Both the position numbers and the translations under genes were made by a program. The notes below the pieces were generated by a model. It was not told the origin of the DNA and did no database searches. It worked only from the letters and a program-made list of their open reading frames with translations. Below, piece by piece: positions 2,257 to 17,644 of a DNA stretch of 32,000 nucleotides. Numbering within the stretch: the first letter of the stretch is position 1; every line of letters starts with the position of its first letter. The stretch comes from Sinorhizobium meliloti (GTDB lineage Bacteria > Pseudomonadota > Alphaproteobacteria > Rhizobiales > Rhizobiaceae), in contig NZ_JAGIOS010000004.1 of assembly GCF_017876815.1 (NCBI RefSeq), forward strand, positions 90,001-122,000, read 5' to 3'.

Positions 2257-2937
2257 CTACGTCTTTGCGCCAGTGCAGATGGTTTCCAGGAGTTCAATCG
2301 TCATTGACTGAGCCACGCGCGGAATATCGGAGAAGCCCTCTCGGTACAGAAGTCTCGTCATGATGGTTTCCGCGAACCGCGGGTTCATCTGGCGAGCAAC
2401 TTTTAGCGCCGCCTCGCATTTATCGTGGAAGGCCTTTAAGGCCTCATCGAGGTACTCCACGCCGTGAGTTTTCATGACGCAAGCGATGTCGAACATGTCG
2501 CGGGGCTGCATCGCGGCACCGCGGTAGTAAACCTTCTTGGCGATGATCTCGCCGGGGGTCTCGAGCAGAACGTGTCGTCCGCGCACCTCCGCTCTCACCG
2601 TCGGATTGCCGGTCAGGCTAGGGGCACAGATAAAGTCGATTTCGCCAACGTTCTCGAAAACAATCTTCAATGTCCGCGATCCATCGGACTCATAGCCGTC
2701 AGGGTTGATGTCGAGAGCGTATCCCTGTGTCTTCGGATTCAGGTATGGCAGAAGTTGCGGATCATCGAGGAAGATGTCGACGTCGAAACTCTCACGGTGA
2801 TCGATCTGGAGCATCAGGGCTGTACCGCCCCCAAAAGTCCAACTGTCGATCATAGCAAGTTCGGAGTTTGCTTGTTCGATGATGCGGCAAGCCTGTTCAA
2901 ACAGGTCGCTCCATCTGCTGACCGGGTGTTCGACCAA
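2257..2937 (-). CDS. Nucleotidyltransferase AbiEii/AbiGii-family toxin (DUF1814-like, type IV TA / abortive infection)
   Basis: The minimal NTase signature is present in WTFGGGTALMLQIDHRESFDVDIFLDD (GG[ST]AL then hRxSxDvD). Length is about 226 aa. Only a TTG start is available, immediately after the stop of the upstream small gene. Confidence 0.7.
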   Translation of the reverse strand: MVEHPVSRWSDLFEQACRIIEQANSELAMIDSWTFGGGTALMLQIDHRESFDVDIFLDDPQLLPYLNPKTQGYALDINPDGYESDGSRTLKIVFENVGEIDFICAPSLTGNPTVRAEVRGRHVLLETPGEIIAKKVYYRGAAMQPRDMFDIACVMKTHGVEYLDEALKAFHDKCEAALKVARQMNPRFAETIMTRLLYREGFSDIPRVAQSMTIELLETICTGAKT

Positions 2938-3207
2938 CTACGCCGCCCGCGCCAAAGGGAGGGAATAGCCAGCAAGTGCCGAGAACTTCCGCGCTAGATC
3001 GGAGGCGGCCATGGGATCAACGTGCATTTCGTCCAGAAACGAGATCTGAAGACTTTCGTCGACCTCGGAAAAGAAGGAAAATGCTGAAGGATCGAAAGAG
3101 ACTGCGCTGGCAGGATCGGAAATCTTCGCCGCCAGCTGCTCAGCCGAAAGGGTCGTCCCATAAGGGGCGTTGACAGTGGACAGAACCTTTACTGCAACGA
3201 TCGACAT
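2938..3207 (-). CDS. Small hypothetical protein (89 aa) abutting the AbiEii gene, candidate non-canonical antitoxin
   Basis: ATG 3207 is preceded by AGGAAG. Its TAG stop is directly followed by the toxin start. I see no recognisable wHTH or AbiEi domain. I trimmed it from the 200-aa ORF 2938..3540, whose N-terminal 111 aa look like non-coding shadow. Confidence 0.4.
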   Translation of the reverse strand: MSIVAVKVLSTVNAPYGTTLSAEQLAAKISDPASAVSFDPSAFSFFSEVDESLQISFLDEMHVDPMAASDLARKFSALAGYSLPLARAA

Positions 3208-3252
3208 CTTCCTGAACCATAGAACACCTGGAATTCTACATATACCGCGGCG

Positions 3253-3576
3253 ATGTTTGCGAAACAAGGATCGCAGGTGAGGAGGTCGACTCCGGCGAAC
3301 TTGAGTTCTGTCGGGGCCGCACGCGACGGCGCAGGCCAGGCCGAGCTGGAGAGCTTGAAAGCACAACTGGAGGCGGCACGACACGCAGCCGGCGAGGCGA
3401 TCGGCGTGTTCTACGATCCCCGCCAGAACGCCGAGCACGCCGCCGACCTGCAACGCTCGCATAGCTTGAGGGAAGAGATGGCGTCGCCGATGCAGCGTGC
3501 TGAGGCCTGGGGCAGGGCAGCATCGGGTGCTGACGAGCACGATAGATCGGCGGCGGAAGCGGAGCCGGAAGAATAG
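3253..3576 (+). CDS. Hypothetical Ala/Glu-rich protein (uncertain)
   Basis: The ORF has a coiled-coil-like segment (AELESLKAQLEAARHAAGEA). An in-frame GTG at 3277 has a better AAGGA ribosome site than ATG 3253. No family was recognised. Confidence 0.2.
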   Translation: MFAKQGSQVRRSTPANLSSVGAARDGAGQAELESLKAQLEAARHAAGEAIGVFYDPRQNAEHAADLQRSHSLREEMASPMQRAEAWGRAASGADEHDRSAAEAEPEE

Positions 3577-3624
3577 GGGTCGTTTGAGAACCGAGCCGAT
3601 GCAGTCTTCGGGGCTTAGTTACGC

Positions 3625-4782
3625 TTAGACGATCAGCCGGGCCGCCCGTCCATTCTTTCGTTCCGCATTGTTGTAATAGCTGGCCGCCTGGGTCACCGAT
3701 TTGTGCAGCGACTGCTGCATCGCCTCTGGAAGAGGGATGCCGCGGTTGGCAGCCTCGGTCAGATAGCCGGATCTCAGCCCATGGGCCGAAAACAGCGCCG
3801 GATCAAGGCCGGCCTGTTCACAGCGTGCTTTCAGGACCAGATTGACAGACTGCGGCGTCAGCGCCCGTCGGTCGATGTTGCCCCACTGATCGATGCGCCG
3901 GAACACCGGGCCGTCCTTGATTTGCGCGTCGGACAGCCATCGCTTCAACACGGTCACCGGCCGGCCGATCAACAGCACATGTTCGTTCTCATCGGCGGTC
4001 GTCGTCTTGGTGCGGCCGAGGCGGATCGACAGGCAGGGCAGGGGAGGGGAGTTTTCGTCGGCGGGATTGGCGCGCACCGGCTCCTCGTCGGCGAGATCCT
4101 CGACGCGCAGCGCCGCCACTTCCGAACGGCGCCGGCCGCCGGAAGCGAAGGCGGCTAAAAGCAGTGCCCGGTCGCGTGCATCCACAAGTCTATCACCGGC
4201 GCAGGCCTCAAGCAGTTTCGTCAGGATATCGAGGGTTACCGCCTTCTTGCTCTTGCGCTGGCGCGGGCGGTTGCTCGCCTTGACCGCCAGCCTCACTGCG
4301 CTCTTCAGCGACGGTGCACCGAAGGCGCCGGTGAAACCGCGCCAACGGGTGAGGATCGACCAGGAGGTCAGCCGCCGCCGCACCGTGCCCGGCGCGTGTG
4401 GCCCGTCGGCCCTGAGCAGGCGCTCGGCGCGCAATCCGACCTCGACATCCGCTGGCATGCCATGGCTCGAATCCTCGGCGCGCTTGACCGGATCCCAGAG
4501 GTGATGGGCGACGAACTTCAGGAGCAGTGCTTCCGGCGCCGGCCAGGGGAGGGGGTCACCGGTGGCGAGGCGGCACCAGGCCTCGAGGTAACCGAGGTCG
4601 GAGGCCAGCGCGCGTAGCGTATTCTCGCCCATGCCCTCCTGCGCCAGGTGTTTGAGTGTGGCGACGTCGTCGTCAGTCAGCAGCGCGGCGAGCTGGTCGC
4701 GGCGGTCGAAGGGCAGGATGGCGTCGAGCGCGTCGAGTTCTTCGGCGCGGCTGGCAATGGGTGTCGATGGCACGATCGTCAT
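3625..4782 (-). CDS. Tyrosine recombinase / site-specific integrase
   Basis: The catalytic pattern is present: GGRRRSEVAALRVEDL (Arg), HGLRSGYLTEAA (HxxR) and LHKSVTQAASYYNN (His and Tyr). The start overlaps the upstream stop as ATGA (4779-4782). Confidence 0.85.
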   Translation of the reverse strand: MTIVPSTPIASRAEELDALDAILPFDRRDQLAALLTDDDVATLKHLAQEGMGENTLRALASDLGYLEAWCRLATGDPLPWPAPEALLLKFVAHHLWDPVKRAEDSSHGMPADVEVGLRAERLLRADGPHAPGTVRRRLTSWSILTRWRGFTGAFGAPSLKSAVRLAVKASNRPRQRKSKKAVTLDILTKLLEACAGDRLVDARDRALLLAAFASGGRRRSEVAALRVEDLADEEPVRANPADENSPPLPCLSIRLGRTKTTTADENEHVLLIGRPVTVLKRWLSDAQIKDGPVFRRIDQWGNIDRRALTPQSVNLVLKARCEQAGLDPALFSAHGLRSGYLTEAANRGIPLPEAMQQSLHKSVTQAASYYNNAERKNGRAARLIV

Positions 4783-5117
4783 CGCGGCAGCCTGTCTTCG
4801 TCATAGAGATCATCGTGCGCCGACGTCATATCATGTTCCCGCCTCGGCTTTCCTTCCGCAGCGAGCATCCAAACCGCGTCGACCGAAGAGACTTTTCCAT
4901 CCTCAACCAGTTTGCTGCCCGGGCGGTGGGCCGTGTCAGGAAGAGTCCCTGCGATTTCATCTGAGGGGGAATCATCCCCTCCCGAAAAGAAGCTGAGCTG
5001 AGCTATAGGCCATCCGGCCCGGCACACATAGACTTCGTCCTGCCGGCACGCCAAATCGATCAGCTCTTCCAGCCGTTCTGCCGCCTCCTCGACGTCTATG
5101 AATATCTTCATCGGCAT
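4779..5117 (-). CDS. Phd/YefM-like antitoxin-domain protein with no toxin of its own
   Basis: The N-terminus MPMKIFIDVEEAAERLEELIDLACRQDEVYVCRAGWPIAQL has the antitoxin fold pattern (helix, then xVxIxRxGxPVAxL). The acidic tail ends HDDLYDEDRLPR. ATG 5117 lies 2 nt after the VapC stop (5111 is an alternative). The 3' end overlaps the integrase ATG. Confidence 0.5.
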   Translation of the reverse strand: MPMKIFIDVEEAAERLEELIDLACRQDEVYVCRAGWPIAQLSFFSGGDDSPSDEIAGTLPDTAHRPGSKLVEDGKVSSVDAVWMLAAEGKPRREHDMTSAHDDLYDEDRLPR

Positions 5118-5119
5118 CG

Positions 5120-5497
5120 CTACCAAACCCGTTCATGCAGCACCGCATCGAAGGCGCCGTCGACTGAAACAAGGGCGCAATGTTCGAGCCGCGCCTGTGC
5201 GGCGAGTATGCGGTCCCACGGATCGCGGTGATCCCATTCGAAAGCGGCCGCCAGTTCGGCATGCAAATCGGTGATGGCAAGGGTCTGCAAACCGCTAACC
5301 GAGACTGCGGCACGCAACTCCTGTGGTTTGAGATCAAGCTTTTTCAGCCGCATCTTGTTGTCCAGCTCGTAGAAGGAGACAGCGCTGACAAGGATGGTGT
5401 TTGCCTTGTCCTCAATCAGCGATCGTGCCGTTAAGGAAAGGCGGTCACTGCCGATTGTCCACCAGTAGACCGCGTGGCTGTCGAGCAGCACCTTCAT
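5120..5497 (-). CDS. vapC: PIN-domain ribonuclease toxin VapC
   Basis: MKVLLDSHAVYWW supplies the N-terminal Asp, SFYEL the Glu, and HRDPWDRILAAQA the typical DPFDRxLxAQA block. Length is 125 aa. It overlaps the upstream antitoxin as ATGA. Confidence 0.8.
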   Translation of the reverse strand: MKVLLDSHAVYWWTIGSDRLSLTARSLIEDKANTILVSAVSFYELDNKMRLKKLDLKPQELRAAVSVSGLQTLAITDLHAELAAAFEWDHRDPWDRILAAQARLEHCALVSVDGAFDAVLHERVW

Positions 5498-5784
5498 TTG
5501 GAGGTCTCGCGGCCGTCGGGTCCGCCCCGCCAGATGCCGACATCGTCATTCCAGTCGCCGGCGTCGATTGCAGCCTGCTCAGCGTCGACCTCGTCGAACA
5601 GGTCATCAGGCAGACCGCGCTGGCGAAGGAGGCCGAAGGGGCGTTTTCCGCCATCGGCCGGCCCGATGCGTGCATAGACTTCGTTGCCGCGCATAATCGT
5701 GATTTCCTCGCCCTGGTTGGCGCGTTCGAGCACCTCGGCGAAATGCTTGCGGGCTTCACTGATCTTGTACGTGGTCTGGGGCAT
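5494..5784 (-). CDS. Phd/YefM-family antitoxin
   Basis: KISEARKHFAEVLERANQGEEITIMRGNEVYARIGP followed by RPFGLLRQRGLPDDLFDE is a typical Phd/YefM layout. It is the first gene of the operon. Confidence 0.8.
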   Translation of the reverse strand: MPQTTYKISEARKHFAEVLERANQGEEITIMRGNEVYARIGPADGGKRPFGLLRQRGLPDDLFDEVDAEQAAIDAGDWNDDVGIWRGGPDGRETSK

Positions 5785-5814
5785 CAGGGCCTCCGTCGTT
5801 CGACGCGTATGGCC

Positions 5815-5886
5815 ACCATATCAATGGTTTGAGAAGCGTACAACCACGATGTACATCGCACTATCGATACTTGAATACTATCGATA
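5815..5886 (-). promoter_or_regulatory. Candidate TA-operon promoter plus tandem operator repeats
   Basis: The minus strand reads TTGTAC (5843-5838), 17 nt, then TATGGT (5820-5815), about 30 nt upstream of the Phd ATG. Just upstream are two copies of ACTATCGATA (5860-5869 and 5877-5886, 17 bp apart). Each contains the palindrome TATCGATA. Confidence 0.4.
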
Positions 5887-6127
5887 ATGATCGCATGCGG
5901 GAAATCGGCGTCCGTGTGGCGGAAGCATGAGGCGGGATAGCTTCCGTTTGTGAAATTTGAGGCGTCAATTCACGTGCTTAACGATACGTAGAACCTTCCC
6001 GTCTTGGCCTTTGACGAAGTGCCGGTCAATGAATTCGGTGACGGTAGCAGGGGTGCAGGTCTGGCTACCCAAGGTCGTGAAATTAATGCAGTAATGGTGG
6101 GAACTGGGCCAGCGAGGGGGCGGAGGA

Positions 6128-7606
6128 ATGGCTACCTATTTTCACGAATACTTCGGCGTAAGTCGCGATTCCGTAGACGACTACGGCGCGTTCAATGTGT
6201 CGATCATCAACGATCTCCCCTTGTTCATTGACCCATTTTTGCTCTTCCATAGCTCGAACGCGGAGTATCAAAACCTTCACGAGTCCATCCTCCAGTATAT
6301 TCGGTTCCTGCGGGACGAGGTCGTCGCCGGCAGAGTGAACCGTGACCGGATCAAGGCTTGGTTTCATTTTCCGGAGGTGCGGCAAAACTGGCTGGGATTT
6401 TCCTTGGTCGGTAACGGCGGTTCTGGGCTCGGCAGAGCATTTGCTAATTCGCTTAGCGAGAACCTTGCGGAACTTTTCGCGGATTTTGGCGCCGAAAAGG
6501 TATCGAAGAGCAGCCATCTTGAGAAAGTTTGCCTAGTTCGGGACGGCGTGGGCCGCGACAACATCAGCGACTTCACCACTAACCTAATTATGGACTTCCT
6601 GTGCCGCTATACGGAGACATTCGCAGTCGCCAACATCGACCCCAAGCTGCTCAGGAAGGTGTGGGTCAACAAGGCGATGTTCAACTACGGTACAGGCACC
6701 TGGCAACGGCGACAGTATACCCTTCCGTGGCTCGCCCGTGAAAACGACTTTGTGCTGCTGACGCCCAAGGACATTCTGACTCGCGAGGAAAACTGGATAA
6801 ACCGCACAGATATGATCCGGGACTTTGAAGAGATTCCAATGGCCATCCCAGACGCCGAGCTCCGTGGCCAGGTCTTCGCCTATTTCGAGAAGGAGCTTGC
6901 GAGGCCGGCGGAAGGTGAAGTTACGCAGCGCCAGCTCGACGAGGCAGCCGCCAAGACGTTCATCAAGTTTCCGCTCCTGGTGGACTACTACATAAAACAC
7001 AAGGAACAGACCGGCCAAAAGGCCGTCAACATCAGCTCCGACCGCGTGAGTGAAACGCGCTTGGTTTTCGAGGAGCACGTGCGGGAAATGCAAAGGCTCC
7101 TCGCCGAAGTAACCGGTTTCTATACCTTGCCCGGGGGCACCTACGAGGAAACACACCAGCGACTGGCGTTTCTAAAAGACGTCATCGAGAACAAGGGCGG
7201 GCACCGGATTTTCTGGCACAACGGTAAGGCCATTCAACGGGAGCAGGATCTGCATGTGCTGACTCGCCTCATCTGGTTTGGCTCCCCATCGGATGTCGGA
7301 GCAGAAGCCAACGACGGCCGCGGCCCGGTCGACTATAAAATATCACGTGGCGCCTTCGACAAGACGTTGATTGAAATGAAACTCGCCAAAAACACCGCGC
7401 TCCGGCGCAACCTTGAAAAGCAGCTACCGATCTACCAAGCCGCCAGCGACGCGAAACACGGGATCAAGGCGATCATCTACTTTACGTTAGAGGAAAAAAT
7501 GCGGGTCACTGCCATTCTGAAGGATCTCGAGATCGATGGGCATGCCGACATTGTGTTGATTGACGCCCGCATCGACAACAAACCTTCAGCGTCGAAAGCG
7601 GCGTAG
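6128..7606 (+). CDS. Uncharacterised 492-aa protein with a C-terminal RecB/Cas4-like PD-(D/E)xK nuclease motif set
   Basis: This is a long clean ORF with a G-rich ribosome site before ATG 6128. Ordered motifs are REQDLHVL (E), GRGPVDYKIS (D, codon at 7331), LIEMKLAK (ExK, 7373-7381) and KQLPIYQ (QxxxY, Y at 7433). About 13 residues separate successive motifs. I cannot assign the N-terminal roughly 370 aa to any family. The gene is visibly AT-richer than its neighbours. Confidence 0.75.
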   Translation: MATYFHEYFGVSRDSVDDYGAFNVSIINDLPLFIDPFLLFHSSNAEYQNLHESILQYIRFLRDEVVAGRVNRDRIKAWFHFPEVRQNWLGFSLVGNGGSGLGRAFANSLSENLAELFADFGAEKVSKSSHLEKVCLVRDGVGRDNISDFTTNLIMDFLCRYTETFAVANIDPKLLRKVWVNKAMFNYGTGTWQRRQYTLPWLARENDFVLLTPKDILTREENWINRTDMIRDFEEIPMAIPDAELRGQVFAYFEKELARPAEGEVTQRQLDEAAAKTFIKFPLLVDYYIKHKEQTGQKAVNISSDRVSETRLVFEEHVREMQRLLAEVTGFYTLPGGTYEETHQRLAFLKDVIENKGGHRIFWHNGKAIQREQDLHVLTRLIWFGSPSDVGAEANDGRGPVDYKISRGAFDKTLIEMKLAKNTALRRNLEKQLPIYQAASDAKHGIKAIIYFTLEEKMRVTAILKDLEIDGHADIVLIDARIDNKPSASKAA

Positions 7607-7682
7607 GCGGTCTTTCCCGTATTCTACCCGCGCCGGCTTCAACAATTACTTGACGATCCTGCGAGCTGCGAAGAGCAGTCAA

Positions 7683-9022
7683 GGTTGTGTGCGTCAAGTT
7701 CTGCAAAATTGGGCGGTCATGCGTGCTGGTCATGCGGCTTGACGGAGTGCGAGTTTCTTGTGCTCTCGCAGGTCGTCCATGTTGATGTAGCGATTGGCCT
7801 CCATCCAGTTTTCGTGGGTTTCGACGGCGAGCGCGCGGACGAGGCGTAGGCAGCTCTCGGTATTGGGAAAGATGCGCACGACGTAGGTTCTGCGGCGGAT
7901 TTCCTCGTTGAGGCGTTCCAGCATGTTGGTGCTCTTGAGGTGCTTGTGATGCTGGCGCGGCAGACGAAAGAAGGTCAGCGTCTGCTCGATGGTTTCCTCA
8001 ACCCAGGAGGTCAGGCGCGGATAGCGGACCGACCATTTTCCCAGCCACGCGGCGAGATCGGCCTTCGCCTCATCAAGGTCGCGGCGATCATAGAGCCATC
8101 GAAGCTCCTGCAGGCAATCGTCGCCATGTTTGCGCGGCAGGTGATCGAGGGCGTTCCTGAGGAAATGCACGTAACAGCGCTGCCAGGCAGCTTCCGGGAT
8201 CACCTCGCCAATTGCCGCGACGAGACCGGCATGGTCGTCGGAGACCACCAGTTCGACGCCCTTCAAACCGCGCCCTTTCAGCCTGACGAGGAAGTTCTTC
8301 CAGGCGCAACGGCTTTCACGGCCGGCCATCTCGACCGACAGGATCTGCCGCCGTCCGTCCCAGTCGATGCCGACAGCGATCAACACCGCCTGGCTCATCA
8401 CCACACCGGCCTCGCGCACCTTCTCATAACGGGCATCGAGAATCAGGTAGGCAAACGGCTCTTGAAGCGAGCGCTCGGCAAAGGCCTTCAGGCTCTCGTC
8501 CAGCCGCTTGTTGATCGCCGAGATCGATGACGCCGAGAAGGCATGGCCGCACAGCTCCTCGGTGATCGCCTTGACCTTCCGCGTCGACACCCCTTGCACA
8601 TACATCTCCGCCAAGGTTGCCACCAGCGCCCGCTCGGAGCGCTGGTAGCGTTCGAACAATTCGGTGGAGAAGTGCCCCGAGCGATCCTGCGGCACCCGCA
8701 GCTCGAGCTTGCCCACCCGCGTGATCAGCGTGCGGCCATAGTGGCCCGAACGGTAGCCGAGCCGCTCCGGCGTGCGCTCGCCTTTCGCAGCTCCCAGCGC
8801 CTCGTCCATCTCCGCTTCCAGCACCTCCTGCATCACCGTGCGGATCACCTCGCGCAGCCCATCGGGGTTCGAAAGCAAAATGTCTTTGACGGCGGCGCTG
8901 GCTGTCTTACCTTCAGTCTTGGTCATGGTGGCGTTCCTTCCAGGGAATCAGGTGACGTCAACATCACCAGCCTGCCATGACCGCCTCTCTCAGTGAATTT
9001 GCAGAACCTTCAGCACACTACC
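7683..9022 (-). mobile_element. IS256-family insertion sequence, 1340 bp
   Basis: The imperfect terminal inverted repeats are GGTTGTGTGCGTCAAGTTCTGCAAAAT (7683 onward) and the reverse complement of 8996-9022, GGTAGTGTGCTGAAGGTTCTGCAAATT (21 of 27 identical). They bracket a single transposase gene. Size and organisation fit rhizobial IS256-family elements (ISRm5-like from memory, unverified). The flanks GCAGTCAA and AAGGTTTG show no 8-9 bp direct repeat. Confidence 0.8.
7730..8926 (-). CDS. IS256-family transposase
   Basis: The 398-aa product has typical blocks: RLGYRSGHYGRTLITRVGKLELRVPQDR, ALVATLAEMYVQGVSTRKV, YLILDARYEKVRE, VVSDDHAGL, WQRCYVHFLRN and STNMLERLNEEIRRR. Confidence 0.95.
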   Translation of the reverse strand: MTKTEGKTASAAVKDILLSNPDGLREVIRTVMQEVLEAEMDEALGAAKGERTPERLGYRSGHYGRTLITRVGKLELRVPQDRSGHFSTELFERYQRSERALVATLAEMYVQGVSTRKVKAITEELCGHAFSASSISAINKRLDESLKAFAERSLQEPFAYLILDARYEKVREAGVVMSQAVLIAVGIDWDGRRQILSVEMAGRESRCAWKNFLVRLKGRGLKGVELVVSDDHAGLVAAIGEVIPEAAWQRCYVHFLRNALDHLPRKHGDDCLQELRWLYDRRDLDEAKADLAAWLGKWSVRYPRLTSWVEETIEQTLTFFRLPRQHHKHLKSTNMLERLNEEIRRRTYVVRIFPNTESCLRLVRALAVETHENWMEANRYINMDDLREHKKLALRQAA

Positions 9023-9228
9023 AAGGTTTGCGCTGATGGTCTTTGCAGGGCCGACTTCTTCGGCTCCAGCCCCACACCTGCATCTCCCCTCGTCGGCCGG
9101 CATCCTTCGCCGGCAGGTCCGCAGATCGTGTCTTGCGGAGGAACTGCCGTGGTAAATGGTTGGCGATCAGGAAGCGGCCAATCTCATCGCCGTCGTGGCA
9201 TCGCCGGCGCGATCGGCGCGCGCGCTTT

Positions 9229-10106
9229 TCACCGACATGGTTCAAAGAGACCGGCCTGTTTCGGTATCTGGAGTACCGCGGCACCGACCCCCAAAAGCCC
9301 GAGAACCTCGTCCCGCAGACGGATGAACTCGCGGCTTGACCGGTCTTGGCGTGCTTGCTCGGGATTCGAAAGAATCGTGGCATGCGGCCGGGGTGAGGCT
9401 GCATGACAACGATCCGGTGCCCGACCGCCTCGTCGACGTCATGCGTCACCAGCAGCGCTGTCGTCCCCTCATGTTGAACGATGCGCTTGAGTTCGTCCTG
9501 CAGTCTGAGGCGCGTCAATGCGTCCAAGGCACCGAGCAGCTCGTCAAGCAGCAGGAACCGCGGCCGGTTGACGAGCGCCCTGGCAATGGCAACACGCTGG
9601 GCCATTCCACCCGACAGCTGTGCCGGGTAGGATTTCGTAAACTGTGTCCGGCCAACGAGCTCGATATGCTCGCGCACCGTCTCCTGCTTCGCGGATCTTG
9701 ACAAGGGGCTGCGTCGAAGGGCAGCTGCGACATTTCCCTCGACCGTCAACCAGGGCAACAGTCTGTGATCCTGAAAGACGATCGAGCGATCGAGACCAGG
9801 CCGACGGACGGGCGCGCCGTCGACCAGGATATCCCCACTGTAGTCGAGATCGAGGCCGAGAATAAGCCGCAACAAAGTAGACCTCCCGCAGCCGGACGCG
9901 CCGACGATCGTGACGAACTCTCCGGACTTGACGGAAAGATCCACACCGGTAAGCACCTTCAGCTCTCGCCCTGCGACGGTGAAGCTCTTGTCGAGATGAC
10001 GGATTTCAAGGGTCGGCGCGACATCAACCTGAAAGGTGCGCGATGGGTATCTCTCGTTCATCTCGTTCTTCTCCTGAGGCCGCGCCCGTAATGTGTCAAC
10101 GGTCAT
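9229..10106 (-). pseudogene. ABC transporter ATP-binding protein (SsuB/TauB/NrtD-type), frameshifted
   Basis: Walker A (GASGCGRSTLL), signature (LSGGMAQRVAIARAL) and Walker B (FLLLDE) are intact. After ...VVMQPHPGR (about 9375-9385) the family-typical C-terminus (DRSSREFIRLRDEVLGLLGVGA, stop at 9229-9231) continues in another frame. The annotated frame runs on as nonsense to 9018. Confidence 0.75.
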
Positions 10107-10919
10107 GGCGCGCCTCCGTCTTCCACGGCTGGATGAAGTGTTCCAGGTATCCAAGGACGGCGTTTAGCGACAGACCAATCGCTGCGATGACGATCATGGC
10201 GACGATGACAAGTTCCAGCTGGAAGAGCTGGCGGCCCCAGGTCATTAGATAGCCGAGCCCGTCGAAGGATGCGAACAGCTCGACAATCACCAGGCTCTGC
10301 CACGCGTCGGCCAATCCTTCGCGAACGCCGGTGAACAGAGACGGCAGTGCGGTCGGCAGGACAATTGCTGATACCGCTGCATCGGTGTGAAATCGAAGAC
10401 GCGACCGAGTTCCACAAGGTTAGGGGAGACACCGGCGATGCTGCGCTTGGTCGCCAATATCACCGGTATCGCCGTCGACCACGCGATGCAGACATATTTG
10501 AGCTCCTCGTCGATGCCGACGAACAAAACGAGGAGAGGCAGCCAAGCCAGCATGTTGACCTGTGCAACGGCGGTGAAGACCGGCCAGACGAATGATCTGA
10601 CGACGGGCAGGAGTCCCAGGGCGGCCCCGGCGAGCAGACCGGACAGCGCTCCGATCGAAAAACCCACGGCGACGCGCCGCAAGCTTACAAGGGTGTGCTC
10701 GATGAGTGACCCGTCACGCCACAGCTCGACGATGGTCGCCCAAACCACCTCGGGAGCGGGCAGTATCTGCTGAGGAAGCCAGCCGAAACGCGACGAAAGT
10801 CCCCATGCGAGCAACAGGACAAGTGGCAAAGAGATCGTGTAGGCCACGTTGGCCAAAAACGGCAACAGGTTGGTCAGTCTTTGCTCTACGGGCCGGGGAG
10901 CCGAAGCGGTCAAGGTCAT
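10096..10919 (-). pseudogene. ABC transporter permease (SsuC/TauC-type), frameshifted
   Basis: The N-terminal 180 aa are in ORF 10287..10919. After ...FDFTPMQRYQ the expected AIVLPTALPSLFTGVREGLADAWQSLVIVELFAS... continues in the frame of ORF 10096..10314. A 1-nt indel near 10360-10372 explains the switch. Confidence 0.75.
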
Positions 10920-12040
10920 CTAACGCCCTCATTGGCAAAGGTCCGCCCGCGCCGTGTGGCGCAGGCGAGCTCGATGATATCCAGTTGCTTTGCTTCTTGT
11001 TGAGATCGCCGAGCTTGGCGATTTCGCCGTTGGCGTCGTAGCTTGACCAGTAGTTAACCAGCTTCAGGTCCTTTAGCGCCTGCTGCAGGTATTTCGGCTC
11101 CAGCCAGGCATCAACGTCGACGTCGCCCTTGATCAACCCATAGGCCTTAGCCCGGGCGACCTGGTCCTTGTAGCGGGCGATGATGAAGTCATCGATCAGC
11201 GGGTTGAGACGGTTGGCAAGCGTATCGGCCTCGATGTCACCTTCGAAGGCATCCTTGGGGAAACCCGAAAGCGACCAACCGTCGAAGACCTCGTCCTTAT
11301 TCGCGGGATCGGAGGCGAAGGCGGCTGCCTTAATGAAGGTGGTGACCACGCGCTGCGTCACATCAGGATGGGCCTGTTCGAAGGCGGCCGTGACCAGATA
11401 GGATGTGTGGCGGCCGAGTGTCGGATCGTCGCCCTTGGTGGTATAGGCGATCTTCACGATCCCTTTCTTCGCCAGCGCCAGGAATTCCGGACCGCCAAAC
11501 ACGGCGTCGACATTGCCGGAGGTGAGGGCCGCTGCGGCAGCGCTTGTGTCGAGATTGATGAAACGGACGTCCTTTTCCGTGAGGCCGTGGGTGGACAACA
11601 CGCGATCGGTGGCGAGCTGCAGATTGGTTCCTTTGAAGAGGGCAACCTTCTTGCCCTTCACGTCGTCGATCGACTTTATATCGCTGTCGATCGGCACGGC
11701 GAGATAGATCGGTTCGTGGCTCCAGCCCGCGCGAGCGGCCAACGATTGCTGGCAAGTCGCCGAGCAGGAAGAAATCGAGCTGCTTTGCAGCAACGGCTTC
11801 GTTGAGCGCAGGACCAGCACCACGGAAGTAGGTCCACTCGACCTTGATGTCCTTATCGGTGCGGAATTCCTTTTCGATGAGCTCTCGGGCCCGCGCATAG
11901 GACGTGGCATCCCCTTGCAAATATTGCCTGTTGTCAAGGCCAGTTCCTGGGTGGCCGAAGCGGATGGTCAATCCCTCGGCTGAGACCGAGCTAAGCGAGG
12001 CGAGAAGTGCGGCAAGCGCCGCGGCGATACGAAGTTTCAT
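10916..12040 (-). pseudogene. Periplasmic substrate-binding protein (sulfonate/NMT1-like), frameshifted
   Basis: The signal peptide and first roughly 95 aa are in ORF 11363..12040. The remainder (EPIYLAVPIDSDIKSIDDVKGKKVALFKGTNLQ...) is in the frame of ORF 10714..11937, with the switch near 11715-11760. That frame has no stop before it runs 200 nt into the permease, so a second 3' shift is likely. One alternative frame ends in an ATGA overlap with the permease start. Confidence 0.7.
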
Positions 12041-12990: not shown

Positions 12991-14014
12991 GGGAATCTCC
13001 GGTTGATAGTAGAAGAAGACAGCGGTCATATCTGGCCAGCGAGACGTCCGCCGGGCACTGAGTAAATCTCGTCGCCGATGCCCGACGTAGCTATCAAAGA
13101 GGACATCTGAGGGAATCTATAGAGATAAGGTTCTAACTTTACATGGACCCACGAAACAACGATCTCCGTTGCTAGCGCCTGGGTATCGAATTCTCTAAGG
13201 CCATCCAACTCAGGTTCTCCACAGGCGGCACATGGCCTCAGCGTTCAGCCGTGCCTGCCCGCTCGGGTCGCAGCAATCACGGAGCAACGACGCCCGGCCG
13301 GCCGCCTGTCCTGCAGGCGATCCTCACCCTCCCGCTTGAGATTGACGCCATTCATGTCGGTTGGAATTCAAAACACGCAGCCCTTCTGCGGTCCCGGAGC
13401 GGCAGCTGGCGGAGATCGTGTCCGTCGAGATAGAGCGGATCAAGACAAAGAAGCCTTCGTGAGAGTCATGCAGCCTGGGTTTACGGTACGGCCAGGCGCG
13501 CGTTGCAATGCGCTTCAGATCGCCCTTTTTTGTCAAACAGGCAGGCGCTGCCAACGTCGGGCAGGGCTATGTTTACGATCCAGTGCTCGAGGCGGCCAAC
13601 GCTCGCTATATCTCCGGCGACATTACCACGGAAGAGGTTCGAGAAGAGATGCTGGCGCGCTTAAAGCGCGCCTGATCTTCGATCAGTGATTTGAACAAGC
13701 CGCCTGCATTCTGAACTGACCCCCGAAAGTTGCACACCCGATTGTGGTGACGTGTTCGTGCTCCGACCCAAGCGATGCGATCGCTTGCGATGCATTTAGG
13801 GGATGGCGATGGCATGATCCTAGCGACGAAATGACCGGAGCAGAGCAGAAATGGCCGTGTCGTAATATAGCTAGATATATCTTGACATATATTCTGAAGA
13901 TGGTTGAGTGTTCGCAATGATATCGCCGCTACCCTCTCAGCGGCGCCTAATATATATCCCGATATATTCTCCTGACTCTTGCTTATCCAAAAGGCTTCTA
14001 TTAGACCGCTCTCT

Positions 14015-14908
14015 ATGAAAGAGAAGAGACAACGCCTCGAGGCGGAGAGCATCGAGATTTTCCGCGAGGTTGCCGCCAGTTTCGCGCGCCCGGTGATGAT
14101 GTATTCGATCGGCAAGGATTCCTCGGTGCTGCTGCATCTGGCGCGCAAGGCGTTCTATCCGTCCTCGATTCCGTTCCCGCTGCTCCACATCGATACGACC
14201 TGGAAATTTTCCCAGATGATCGGCTTCCGTAACCGGATGGCAGAGGAGTACGGGTTCGAACTTCGCGTTCACACCAATGCCGATGGCGTGGCACAGGGGA
14301 TCAATCCCTTCGACCACGGGTCGGCCTATACCGACATCATGAAAACCCAAGCCCTGCGCCAGGCGCTTTCGTCCGGCGGGTATGACGCCGCCATTGGTGG
14401 CGCGCGGCGCGACGAGGAAAAGAGCCGCGCCAAGGATCGCATCTTTTCCCACCGCAACGCCCATCACGCCTGGGACCCCAAGAACCAGCGCCCCGAACTC
14501 TGGCGCTTGTTCAACACACGTCTGGCGCCCGGCGAGAGCATGCGGGTGTACCCGCTCTCCAACTGGACCGAGCTCGACATCTGGACCTATATCTATGTCG
14601 AGGACATCCCCATCGTGCCACTCTATTTCGCCCGCCCGCGCCCGGTGGTGGAACGCTCGGGCACGCTGATCATGGTCGATGACGACCGCTTCCGCCTCGA
14701 TAAAGGCGAGACGCCCACCGAGCAGGTCGTGCGCTTCAGGACGCTTGGCTGCTACCCGCTGACCGGCGCGATCCGCTCCAATGCCGCCACACTCGCCGAG
14801 ATCATCATGGAGATACAGGGCAGCCGGACCTCCGAGCGCGAAGGGCGTCTGATCGACGGCGATCAGGCCGGCTCGATGGAAAAGAAGAAGCAGGAGGGGT
14901 ATTTCTGA
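14015..14908 (+). CDS. cysD: Sulfate adenylyltransferase subunit 2 (CysD / NodP type)
   Basis: The product shows near-colinear similarity to NodP/CysD as I remember it: [69 protein letters not shown] and the C-terminal [15 protein letters not shown] 14015 gives 297 aa. Confidence 0.92.
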
Positions 14909-16818
14909 TGAGCAGCGCCACCGCCCCGGCTCCTTGCGCCGATACCGATATCGACCTCTGGCTCGCCCGGCAGACCGGCAAATCGCTGCTGCGCTTCCTG
15001 ACCTGCGGCTCGGTGGACGATGGTAAGTCGACGCTCATCGGCCGACTGCTCTATGACAGCCAGATGATCCTCGACGACCAGTTGGCGTCGCTGAAAAAGG
15101 ACAGCCGCAACAGGCATGTGGGCGAGGAGGGCATCGATTTCTCGCTGCTGGTCGACGGTCTCGTCGCCGAGCGCGAGCAGGGCATCACCATCGACGTGGC
15201 TTATCGCTTCTTTTCCACCGACCGGCGAAAGTTCATCGTCGCCGATACGCCCGGCCACGAGCAATACACCCGCAACATGGCGACCGGCGCCTCCAACGCC
15301 GACGTGGCGCTGCTGCTGGTCGACGCCCGCAAGGGGCTTTTGACCCAGACGCGCCGCCACAGTTTCATCCTCTCGCTGTTTGGGGTGAAGCACGTGGCGC
15401 TGGTGGTCAACAAGATCGATCTCATGGACTATTCCCAGGAGGTGTTCGCAAGGATCGAGGCCGAATACCGCGCCTTTGTTACCGAATTGGGTTTCGCCTC
15501 CCTTGCCGCAGTCCCCATCTCGGCCCTGCGCGGCGATAACATCGTCGCCAAGTCGGAGCGCACGCCATGGTACACGGGCTCGCCGCTTCTGTCCTACCTC
15601 GAAGATATCGCTGTCGATGAAGACCGCACGCAAACCCCGTTCCGTTTTCCGGTGCAGTGGGTCAATCGTCCCAATCTCGATTTTCGCGGGTTTTCGGGTA
15701 CGGTCGCCTCGGGCACGGTCAGGGTGGGTGACGAGATTCTGGTCTCATCCTCCCGCAAGCCCGCCGCGATCGCGCGCATCGTCACCATGGACGGCGATCT
15801 TCCCGAAGCCGCCGCCGAACAGGCCGTAACGCTCGTCCTCGACCGCGAGATCGATATCTCGCGCGGCGACGTGCTCACCCATTCCGGCCAGACGCCGGAA
15901 TTCTCCAACCAGTTCCAGGCAGAACTCGTATGGATGGCCGACGAACCCGCCTATCCCGGGCGCTCCTATCTTTTAAAGATCGGCAGCCAGGTGGTGCCCG
16001 CGACTATTACCGACCTGAAACACCGCACCAACGTCAATACGCTGAAAAAGGCCGCCGCCAAGCGGCTCGAGCTCAATGAGGTCGGCACGGTTACCATCGC
16101 CACCGACAGGCCGATTGCCTTCGATCCCTACAACACAAATCGGCTGACCGGCGGCTTCATCCTCATCGACCGCATTCACAATCTCACCCTTGGCGCGGGC
16201 ACCATCGCGTATGGCCTGCAACGGGCGCGAAACCTTTCCTACCAGTCCTTCGACGTCAATCGCGAGGTCCGCGCCGGTATGAAGGGGCAGACCCCGCAGA
16301 TCGTCTGGTTCACCGGCCTGTCGGGCTCGGGCAAGTCGACGGTCGCCAACCTACTCGAAAAACGGCTCACCGCTGAAGGCAAGCATGCCTACATCCTCGA
16401 CGGCGACAACGTCCGGCACGGGCTCAACAAGGATCTCGGCTTCACCGACGCGGCACGTGTGGAGAACATCCGCCGTGTGGCCGAGGTGGCGCGGCTGATG
16501 GCCGATGCAGGGTTGATCGTCATTGTCTCGTTCATCTCCCCCTTCGCCAACGAGCGCCGCATCGCCCGCGAAATCGCCGCCAACATCCGCTTTCTCGAAG
16601 CCTACGTCGACACCCCGCTGGAGGTGTGCGAAGCGCGCGATCCCAAAGGGCTCTACGCCAAGGCCCGGGCCGGCCAGATCACCAATTTTACCGGCGTCGA
16701 CAGCCCGTTCGAAGTGCCGCAGGATCCCGATATTACGCTCCGTGGCGCAGTCGCCTCGTCTGAGGAAATGGCCGACATCATCTACGAAAGGGTAGTTCGA
16801 ACTGATCAGGCGAAGTAA
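14908..16818 (+). CDS. cysN: Bifunctional sulfate adenylyltransferase subunit 1 / APS kinase (CysN-CysC fusion, NodQ type)
   Basis: The N-terminal GTPase domain has GSVDDGKSTLIGRLL, DTPGHEQYTRNM and NKIDL. The C-terminal APS kinase domain has WFTGLSGSGKSTVA, LDGDNVRHGLN and FISPF. The start overlaps the cysD stop (TGATG). Confidence 0.93.
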   Translation: MSSATAPAPCADTDIDLWLARQTGKSLLRFLTCGSVDDGKSTLIGRLLYDSQMILDDQLASLKKDSRNRHVGEEGIDFSLLVDGLVAEREQGITIDVAYRFFSTDRRKFIVADTPGHEQYTRNMATGASNADVALLLVDARKGLLTQTRRHSFILSLFGVKHVALVVNKIDLMDYSQEVFARIEAEYRAFVTELGFASLAAVPISALRGDNIVAKSERTPWYTGSPLLSYLEDIAVDEDRTQTPFRFPVQWVNRPNLDFRGFSGTVASGTVRVGDEILVSSSRKPAAIARIVTMDGDLPEAAAEQAVTLVLDREIDISRGDVLTHSGQTPEFSNQFQAELVWMADEPAYPGRSYLLKIGSQVVPATITDLKHRTNVNTLKKAAAKRLELNEVGTVTIATDRPIAFDPYNTNRLTGGFILIDRIHNLTLGAGTIAYGLQRARNLSYQSFDVNREVRAGMKGQTPQIVWFTGLSGSGKSTVANLLEKRLTAEGKHAYILDGDNVRHGLNKDLGFTDAARVENIRRVAEVARLMADAGLIVIVSFISPFANERRIAREIAANIRFLEAYVDTPLEVCEARDPKGLYAKARAGQITNFTGVDSPFEVPQDPDITLRGAVASSEEMADIIYERVVRTDQAK

Positions 16819-16933
16819 TCCAACGTCGACTTGGTGAGCGGCCCCAAATCTGACGCTCTGTTGCCGAAGTACGCTGGATCGGCGACGAGAGCTATTACAG
16901 CCCGGATAGTTTCAATATCGGAGTCAACATTTT

Positions 16934-17644
16934 ATGATCATCTCACATCGCTACAAATTCGTATTGCTGGCACCGTGGAAAACAGCCAGCTCAACTGCGC
17001 ATGCTCGCCTTGAAGCTCTCGATGAAAGCCCATACAGCCGATTTTTCTACTTTAACCCATTTCTAAATCGTGTAGTTCATCAACACCTTACGTACGCCGA
17101 ATTCGCAACGCTCCCTGAAAGTAAATTAGGCTACAAGGTTGCCGCGTTTGTCAGAAATCCATACGACAGGGCGTACTCGGGATTCTTGCAGTTACAGCGG
17201 GATATTAAGCATCAACCATCGCTTGAATTCCCATCCGAATGGATCAAGGCTTTGGTATTGAAACAGCTGTCCGATAATCAAAATAAGCTCATTGATGCGC
17301 GGTATGACTTCGATCTCTGGATTCAACTATTACAAGAATTCGAAGTTTTCGAGGTGGGACGAAATACAAATTTGCCTCTACACCCGGCGAACTACTGGAC
17401 ACACTATAATTCTATGCAGGCAGTCGACTTCGTCGGGAAGGTGGAAGAATTCGAAACTGATTTCGCTGCATTCTGCCGCTTCGTGGACATTGATGTTCCG
17501 GAGCTGGTCAACAAAAATCTCTCGGAGCAATTTGTCGAAGGAGACGGATACAGGTACGCAGCACAGATGTGTTCGTCCAGTCGTTCGAGAATAAATACGT
17601 TGTTTAAATCCGACTTCGATCTCTTTGGATATACTCGATTTTGA
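16934..17644 (+). CDS. Sulfotransferase family 2-type PAPS-dependent sulfotransferase
   Basis: The 5'-phosphosulfate loop is APWKTASST and the 3'-phosphate motif is VRNPYDRAYSGF. The product is 236 aa with no signal peptide. The gene is markedly AT-richer (mid-40s percent GC by eye) than cysDN upstream. Confidence 0.8.
   Translation: MIISHRYKFVLLAPWKTASSTAHARLEALDESPYSRFFYFNPFLNRVVHQHLTYAEFATLPESKLGYKVAAFVRNPYDRAYSGFLQLQRDIKHQPSLEFPSEWIKALVLKQLSDNQNKLIDARYDFDLWIQLLQEFEVFEVGRNTNLPLHPANYWTHYNSMQAVDFVGKVEEFETDFAAFCRFVDIDVPELVNKNLSEQFVEGDGYRYAAQMCSSSRSRINTLFKSDFDLFGYTRF

Follow-up and report, generated by a model that had tools for sequence, protein, structure and literature searches.

The gene at positions 6128 to 7606 (plus strand) of a 32,000-nucleotide stretch of Sinorhizobium meliloti DNA (contig NZ_JAGIOS010000004.1, positions 90,001 to 122,000; hereafter the window) is a credible candidate for a single-protein sensor-nuclease defence system with a new sensor module, its function being predicted from sequence. 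In our favoured reading, to which we give a probability of about 0.6, the product would be a self-contained immune polypeptide in which the domain DUF8370 senses an infection cue and licenses a PD-(D/E)xK DNase, DUF8371. The first-pass annotation of the window had put this open reading frame (ORF) forward as a candidate single-gene defence system, and the computational checks that it proposed all came out in favour. The ORF exists exactly as it was described there, with 492 aa and an ATG start on the plus strand; the purine-rich, Shine-Dalgarno-like tract GAGGGGGCGGAGGA lies directly 5' of the ATG, at 6114-6127. The protein is identical over its full length (100%) to WP_012881185.1 of plasmid pSmeSM11a, which is annotated as 'hypothetical protein'. 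The precomputed domains of the 100%-identical record P0001, and of all 120 best homologues, are DUF8370 (PF28123) and DUF8371 (PF28130). Short-form relatives carry PF28123 only, which identifies DUF8370 with the N-terminal module (N-module) and DUF8371 with the nuclease domain. The features of the gene are as follows.

6128 to 7606, plus strand: ORF with ATG start, 492 aa plus stop; a complete member of the DUF8370+DUF8371 family
6128 to 6826, plus strand: subdomain 1 of the N-module, aa 1-233, with a near-invariant polar set and distant homology to PDC-M36A
6827 to 7132, plus strand: helical linker part of the N-module, aa 234-335, including the long helix 296-328, from the secondary structure predicted by AlphaFold2 (AF2)
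7133 to 7603, plus strand: predicted PD-(D/E)xK nuclease domain, aa ~336-492 (~155 aa), Pfam DUF8371, topology H-H-H-E-E-E-H-E-H-E (H, helix; E, strand)
Catalytic codons within this domain: E372 at 7241-7243, D402 at 7331-7333, E416 at 7373-7375, K418 at 7379-7381, Q432 at 7421-7423 and Y436 at 7433-7435

The C-terminal domain and its exchange among relatives

The motifs on which the first-pass annotation had based its nuclease assignment stand at the residues it gave, namely E372 (REQDLHVL), D402 (GPVDYKIS), E416-x-K418 (LIEMKLAK) and Q432-xxx-Y436 (KQLPIYQ), and the spacing is also as claimed, with 13 residues from D402 to E416 and 13 from K418 to Q432. Their conservation was counted in 57 full-length homologues of 30-77% identity from many phyla. 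E372 is conserved in 56, D402 in 52, E416 in 51, K418 in 56, Q432 in 49 and Y436 in 50 of these, so that the motif positions rank among the most conserved of the domain; two further positions, E354 (57/57) and K350 (54/57), are conserved as well.

The AF2 model has a predicted local distance difference test score (pLDDT) of 87.2 for the whole protein and of 90.5 for the isolated domain, the latter with a predicted template modelling score (pTM) of 0.85. In full-length numbering its elements are helix 372-381, strands 389-391, 403-406 and 412-419, helix 425-440 and strand 444-451. In this model E372 opens a helix, the second core strand (403-406) begins right after D402, the third strand contains E416 and K418, and the helix that follows bears Q432 and Y436, after which two more strand-helix units are predicted. 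As read from the predicted secondary structure, the alpha-beta-beta-beta-alpha-beta topology is that of the canonical PD-(D/E)xK core.

We scanned the C-terminal domains of 45 diverse members against Pfam one at a time. PDDEXK_9 (PF08011) was matched by 22 of them (best E = 5.5e-6) and the restriction endonuclease (REase) family DpnII-MboI (PF18742) by 10 (best E = 1.8e-4), and every other family was matched by at most two. These profile matches range from sub-threshold to significant, with the window protein itself below the Pfam gathering thresholds. Foldseek searches of the PDB and BFVD, made with the whole protein and with the domain alone, gave no match at E <= 1e-3, and sequence and profile searches of the PDB gave no significant match of the nuclease domain to any solved nuclease. 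The Foldseek ranking of PDB entries consists mostly of REase folds (N.BspD6I, SfsA, Cdn1, Can2, CdiA-CT, PspGI, ACE1, NucS/EndoMS and Mus81), and BFVD returned local matches to viral proteins of the restriction endonuclease, Mrr and PD-(D/E)xK types (probability 0.95-1.0, E >= 5e-3). On the motif conservation, the predicted topology and the recurrent PDDEXK_9 and DpnII-MboI matches we accept the C-terminus as a predicted member of the PD-(D/E)xK superfamily, with which it shares the order and spacing of E...D...ExK...QxxxY, the core topology and the profiles named above. The C-terminal nuclease of the first-pass annotation is upheld on the same grounds.

The narrower label given there, 'RecB/Cas4-type', stands only in part. 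The QxxxY motif is present on the helix after strand 3 and is conserved in the counts above, but the PDDEXK_1, RecB and Cas4 profiles and the Fe-S cysteines are not shared. The protein has no match to PDDEXK_1 or Cas_Cas4 at E <= 10, and both lie outside the 25 families most frequently matched in the scan of 45 domains. There is no cysteine in aa 331-492, so that the domain cannot hold a four-cysteine Fe-S cluster of the Cas4/AddB type; with neither a profile match nor cysteines, Cas4 membership was rejected. As a side observation on the alignment, several members have Trp at conserved glycines of the nuclease hairpin, e.g. NNWRWPVDFKVSKW; these probably come from code 25 genomes (UGA = Gly) that were translated with UGA as Trp.

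Among the relatives the N-module is constant and the C-terminus is exchangeable. The effector-swapped relatives align to aa 3 to ~390 of the query, and individually verified fusions join the N-module to TIR (P0158, P0159, P0160, P0165 and P0173), to CHAT (P0168 and P0132), to caspase with or without EAD7 (P0138 and P0163) and to SIR2 (P0149). In a census of 78 proteins we counted TIR_2 in nine, caspase in three, CHAT in three, EAD7 in two, and SIR2_2 and PNP_UDP_1 in one each. In bacterial conflict systems, EAD7 acts as an adaptor by which effectors are recruited (PMC7159879). By its fusions to TIR, SIR2, CHAT, caspase and EAD7 the N-module has partners in common with validated immune systems.

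In the swapped proteins a stretch of the nuclease domain usually persists between N-module and added effector, but its catalytic residues are gone. Of the canonical forms of ~490 aa, 38 of 43 have the complete tetrad E372/D402/E416/K418, compared to 1 of 10 individually verified effector-added forms (Fisher p = 4e-6). This suggests that the nuclease is under selection exactly when it is the sole effector, and its decay together with the retention of the N-module is the pattern expected if the nuclease is the effector and the N-module decides on its firing. Effector swapping with nuclease decay is a pattern absent from the literature searched.

The two halves also occur apart. A 304-aa protein that consists of the N-subdomain only is encoded on Acinetobacter p3AsACE (locus L099, 4998-6766), with two small ORFs after it and divergent HTH and ImmA/IrrE genes before it. 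On Bacillus thuringiensis pKK1 (locus L098, 4428-5606), a 392-aa protein has a DUF8371-like nuclease behind an unrelated N-terminus. A further architecture, in which the N-module is joined to a fragment of the RuBisCO large chain (P0215, 479 aa; Pfam E = 8e-18), is most likely a chimera of assembly or gene calling and not real.

The N-terminal module and the reach of the family

Subdomain 1 and the linker together make up the Pfam DUF8370 region (aa 1 to ~335), which is kept in all effector-swapped relatives. In the AF2 model this region is mostly helical, with the long helix 296-328 and one long beta-hairpin at 175-202. Twelve polar residues are near-invariant (D29, D35, E83, N96, H130, E132, K133, D144, S147, D148, N152 and T162), subdomain 1 has a Gly-rich loop (G90, N96 and G98), and essentially all 78 relatives have the signature DDENHEKDSDNT. 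Strict conservation is found at both sites, that of the N-module and that of the nuclease. Judged from these residues, the polar set resembles a metal, ligand or catalytic site more than it does an ordinary surface for protein binding.

The N-module had no match in our Pfam copy, NCBIfam, PDB sequences, PDB profiles, Foldseek-PDB or BFVD, and the whole window protein matched nothing even at E <= 10 in the Pfam copy, NCBIfam and PDB sequences; the Pfam copy that was searched holds no DUF8370 or DUF8371 models. The putative sensor module has no known fold or function, in agreement with the earlier statement that the N-terminal three quarters of the protein fit no characterised family. A second statement, that the N-terminus is like no described variant, holds for characterised relatives but not for catalogued ones: DUF8370 is in the newest Pfam, and the first ~230 aa match PDC-M36A. 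The family is therefore not unseen, being catalogued as two DUFs and distantly linked to a PADLOC candidate.

That link comes from PADLOC, in which aa 22-233 match the PDC-M36A profile with E = 8.2e-22 over positions 23-225 of 457. PDC-M36 is reported as a three-gene cassette (FAM_01399>>FAM_00303>>FAM_00303; PDC paper supplement) that occurs inside BREX, DISARM or type I restriction-modification (R-M) systems. The present family resembles it in the match to component A and in having homologues within operons of the DISARM-like and type I R-M kinds; it differs from it in that the profile is covered only in part (23-225/457) and in that three genes stand against a solitary gene with its own nuclease. 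Being solitary, the gene is a relative of the PDC-M36 candidate and not an instance of it. We also considered the short relatives with a dead nuclease as true PDC-M36A proteins with B partners. This was rejected, since their matches are confined to profile positions ~8-268 of 457 with E-values close to that of the query, and since none of the genes that follow one of them (locus L090) is a PDC-M36 component. That locus (6001-11330) has its short-form relative, with DUF8370 only and a dead nuclease remnant, on a mobilisable element. A type II R-M pair (RE_NgoPII and a C5 methylase) and a Fic gene precede the relative, and three co-directional genes of 169, 276 and 634 aa with no Pfam annotation, which could be trans-acting partners, come after it.

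The conserved polar set and the range of effectors also bear on an alternative, in which the protein would be a ligand-gated effector whose N-module binds a small molecule or nucleotide made in trans, by the phage or the stressed host, as an analog of CARF, SAVED, SLOG and STING. The effectors attached to the N-module (PD-(D/E)xK, TIR, SIR2, CHAT/caspase and PNP-type) are, as is generally known, the set found on the sensors of CBASS, type III CRISPR and Thoeris. Fusions in those systems (Cap4, Can2/Card1/Cdn1, ThsA, TIR-SAVED and CHAT-SAVED) likewise pair one sensing module with effectors that can be exchanged, be they nuclease, TIR, SIR2 or protease. The top fold matches of the nuclease domain include two CARF-nucleases, Cdn1 and Can2, and the near-invariant acidic/His/Ser/Asn set with the Gly-rich loop suggests a ligand or metal pocket. 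The N-module, however, is without detectable similarity to CARF, SAVED, SLOG and STING in Pfam, PADLOC and Foldseek, and the 79 homologue loci described below show no conserved signal generator of the cyclase, CD-NTase, Cas10 or TIR kind beside the gene, whereas such a linked signal-generating enzyme belongs to the known systems. We regard this alternative as unlikely.

The family is large, with more than 6,000 protein clusters in one search and 2,237 matches in a search of 1.84 billion representatives. Among 185,579 species genomes, at least 593, from many phyla, carry a homologue at ~50% identity, and this level is held across Proteobacteria, Firmicutes, Acidobacteriota, Chloroflexota, Cyanobacteria and bacteria of the candidate phyla radiation (CPR). 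Identity of ~50% between such distant phyla points to horizontal spread under strong purifying selection. The family is in 20 plasmid records and in 0 of 50,697 phage records, and on the latter count a phage origin was rejected.

This distribution largely refutes the reading of the protein as a housekeeping nuclease of DNA repair or recombination, or as a non-functional relic. PD-(D/E)xK nucleases do include repair enzymes, and SfsA, NucS/EndoMS and Mus81 are among the weak fold matches. The distribution is nevertheless patchy, with hundreds of the species genomes searched and variable locations; near-identical plasmids are polymorphic for the presence of the gene, and relatives are fused to TIR, SIR2 and caspase. 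The ORF is intact, with an identity of ~50% maintained between phyla. A housekeeping or relic role is hardly plausible.

The plasmid slot and the neighbourhoods of homologues

The window carries repB and repC and is therefore part of an S. meliloti repABC accessory plasmid. The surroundings claimed in the first-pass annotation, with an AbiEii gene, a toxin-antitoxin (TA) and integrase operon and an insertion sequence (IS) element around the gene, match the window annotation:

2257 to 2937, minus strand: AbiEii toxin, flanking backbone
2938 to 3540, minus strand: 200-aa ORF, no family assigned, flanking backbone
3625 to 4782, minus strand: tyrosine integrase, flanking backbone
5120 to 5497, minus strand: VapC/PIN, flanking backbone
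5494 to 5784, minus strand: Phd/YefM antitoxin, flanking backbone
5859 to 7682, plus strand: cassette of 1.8 kb with the gene, 269 bp upstream and 76 bp downstream; 98% shared with another S. meliloti plasmid
7683 to 9022, minus strand: ISRm5, an IS256-family element with 25-nt terminal inverted repeats; abuts the cassette
7730 to 8926, minus strand: ISRm5 transposase

The backbone genes from 2257 to 5784 form the conserved left border of a variable slot. In the window and in pSmeSM11a, the slot past the VapBC/integrase module (window ~5790-7682) holds the DUF8370/DUF8371 gene and ISRm5. On another S. meliloti plasmid (GCA_033713495.1; locus L001, 10001-18118), the identical protein is followed by Mokosh (MkoB, 7e-54; MkoA, 6e-243, split in two). 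On S. medicae pMl1 (locus L097, 13037-18681) the slot holds a methyl-directed mREase_II and Gabija (GajA, 1e-274; GajB, 3e-240). In sister plasmids that share the repB-repC-AbiEii-integrase-VapBC backbone at ~95%, homology ends at ~5,890-5,990 and the cassette is absent. Since the occupants of the same slot are Gabija with the mREase, the Mokosh-adjoined gene and the ISRm5-adjoined gene, the gene sits in a variable defence hotspot. This local slot evidence is our strongest evidence on genomic context, and bears out the defence-type neighbourhood that had been claimed.

The left edge of the cassette (5859) has a 10-bp direct repeat, ACTATCGATA, in two copies 7 bp apart (5860-5869 and 5877-5886), each of which contains the palindrome TATCGATA; judged from sequence, the repeat could be an operator or a recombination site. 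At the other end, the window and the Mokosh-bearing sister locus are homologous precisely up to the left inverted repeat of ISRm5, and the two flanks of ISRm5 show no target-site duplication (AGCAGTCAA on one side and AAGGTTTGC on the other). Together these suggest an IS-associated deletion or rearrangement 3' of the gene and not a simple insertion. The description of the gene as a visibly AT-richer insert applies only modestly: it has 54.7% GC, compared to 59.2% for the window, and its GC at third codon positions (GC3) of 0.70 is near the values of its neighbours.

Two observations concern other parts of the window. The 200-aa ORF at 2938-3540 (minus strand), which has no match in Pfam or PADLOC, abuts the AbiEii gene on its upstream side, the expected position of an AbiEi antitoxin. 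At 13979-17644 there are cysD/cysN (sulfate adenylyltransferase) followed by a markedly AT-rich family-2 sulfotransferase gene (16934-17644, ~45% GC), and beyond it sulfatase and sugar ABC transporter genes, which look like an accessory sulfation module; these genes were named by position from the pSmeSM11a annotation and not by alignment of that part.

We clustered 666 neighbour ORFs from 79 genome loci of homologues. No partner gene is conserved, the commonest neighbour family being present in 10 of the 79 loci, and an obligate partner was rejected on this clustering. In chromosomes of Bradyrhizobium, Methylobacterium and Mesorhizobium the gene is monocistronic, and the genes around it are unrelated and for the most part metabolic. 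The earlier description of it as a lone gene is borne out both by the 79 loci and by these three genera. An HsdM, HsdR, HsdS or SNF2 helicase gene is within five genes in 10 of the 79 loci, and two loci (L037 and L060) have co-directional HsdR-HsdM-HsdS-gene arrays. A canonical homologue of 50% identity (P0121) is flanked by a DrmD helicase gene (9e-198) on one side and a type III-like methyltransferase gene (3e-203) on the other, all three co-directional. Complete Gabija flanks the gene in at least 2 of 38 loci in a PADLOC batch scan of neighbours, a count that is a lower bound as the scan covered 38 of the 79 loci and its summary was dominated by redundant Gabija models. The association of homologues with defence genes is thus seen at this locus and, in raw counts, in DISARM-like and type I R-M operons elsewhere, and the effector swaps reinforce it.

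These neighbours, together with the profile matches, are relevant to a reading of the protein as a restriction-type enzyme, in which the N-module would read a modification, an end or a structure of foreign DNA and the nuclease would cut that DNA with survival of the host, comparable to type IV/IIM enzymes, MspJI and Mrr. An architecture of a reader plus PD-(D/E)xK fits such an enzyme, as do the Pfam DpnII/MboI matches and the BFVD matches to Mrr and other restriction endonucleases; homologues lie beside methyltransferase and R-M genes, and a methyl-directed REase occupies the same slot on pMl1. The swap to TIR, SIR2 and caspase/CHAT is, however, typical of abortive-infection logic and not of DNA restriction, and the N-module carries an acidic net charge (-9, aa 1-335) and has no known DNA-reader fold. 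We consider a restriction-type enzyme decidedly unlikely.

The mobility genes in the census are relevant to a further reading, that of a mobile-element function such as plasmid or integrative-element maintenance, entry exclusion, competition between elements or a recombination nuclease. The gene is plasmid-borne here, near an integrase, TA modules and IS elements, and the family is in plasmid records as counted above. A large serine recombinase is within 1-5 genes in 10 of the 79 loci, recombinases or type IV coupling proteins (T4CP) are present in 14, and tyrosine integrases are among the recurrent neighbours. No recombinase or transfer gene, however, is consistently linked (<=13% of loci), many chromosomal copies have no mobility gene near, and the effectors of the relatives are of immune type. 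The integrase context does not discriminate between the readings, since defence genes are often cargo beside integrases. A mobile-element function seems to us very unlikely.

Known systems, proposed mechanism and meaning

The kind of protein proposed in the favoured reading, a modular single-protein sensor-effector with a PD-(D/E)xK domain, is known; by analogy, Shedu, the CARF/SAVED nucleases and type IV enzymes may serve as functional analogues, and the protein belongs to none of these groups. The comparison to Shedu made in the first-pass annotation is apt for the architecture, but not for membership. Both have one protein with a regulatory or variable N-terminus and a C-terminal PD-(D/E)xK domain, and both are found in defence islands. 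Shedu, however, has a hypervariable N-terminus (SduA), whereas here the N-module is strongly conserved and the effector varies. Neither DUF4263 (Pfam) nor SduA (PADLOC) was matched at E <= 10, PADLOC returning PDC-M36A only, and membership of Shedu was rejected for lack of these two matches.

In the mechanism that we propose, the N-terminal ~335-aa DUF8370 would be the sensor or regulatory unit and the C-terminal ~155-aa DUF8371 a Mg2+-dependent DNase effector. In the uninfected cell the nuclease would be kept inactive. The conserved acidic pocket of the N-module would perceive an infection cue and bring about a conformational change or the assembly of an oligomer, upon which the nuclease would degrade DNA, either that of the invader only or indiscriminately, as in abortive infection. 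Propagation of the phage or foreign plasmid would then be blocked. TIR, SIR2 and caspase/CHAT effectors are typically activated by induced proximity or oligomerisation, and they kill or arrest the cell. It is from these properties that we infer a trigger-dependent assembly by the N-module and a canonical nuclease of the abortive-infection type.

Several observations weigh against this reading. In the Pfam scan of C-terminal domains, the window protein itself reaches no better than E = 0.097, against DpnII-MboI. In the Foldseek search of the PDB the best match of the domain has E = 0.017 and the template modelling (TM) score is at most 0.37, which is below significance, and the list also mixes in Rossmann-type methyltransferases and AAA+ proteins. 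The acid-rich invariant signature of the N-module resembles a catalytic or metal/ligand site, so that 'sensor' may be the wrong word for it. In 13 of the 78 relatives the nuclease is dead and an effector in cis is absent, and a simple sensor-effector model leaves these unexplained. In 56 of the 79 loci there is no recognisable R-M or mobility neighbour (a crude census in raw counts), several of them lying amid metabolic genes. In the literature, we found no paper on DUF8370, DUF8371, PDC-M36 or WP_012881185, and no experiment on any member of the family.

A further-reaching idea, which we put forward as a tentative possibility, is that DUF8370 may be a previously unrecognised domain of immune sensing or signal processing with its own fold. 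Its near-invariant pocket, made up of D29, D35, E83, N96, H130, E132, K133, D144, S147 and D148 with the Gly-rich loop, would bind or chemically alter a small molecule, a metal-nucleotide or a nucleic-acid cue that arises during infection, and the domain would drive any attached effector, be it nuclease, TIR, SIR2, caspase/CHAT or PNP. If this is true, it would define new and very widespread partner-less single-protein immune receptors with a logic like that of CARF, SAVED and STAND and unrelated to them, and the short forms with a dead nuclease would signal to effectors in trans.

If the favoured reading is confirmed, a widespread defence family, extending from Proteobacteria to CPR bacteria, would be added to those known. 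Current tools miss it, as PADLOC gives a partial match to a different, multi-gene candidate and Pfam gives two DUFs. The family is also a natural experiment in which one conserved sensor module occurs with six or more types of effector and the ancestral nuclease degenerates whenever a new effector arrives, and this makes the trigger and the activation mechanism testable with point mutants. For rhizobial biology, it points to a variable defence slot by the integrase/VapBC module of repABC accessory plasmids, which bears on the phage resistance and plasmid compatibility of inoculants.

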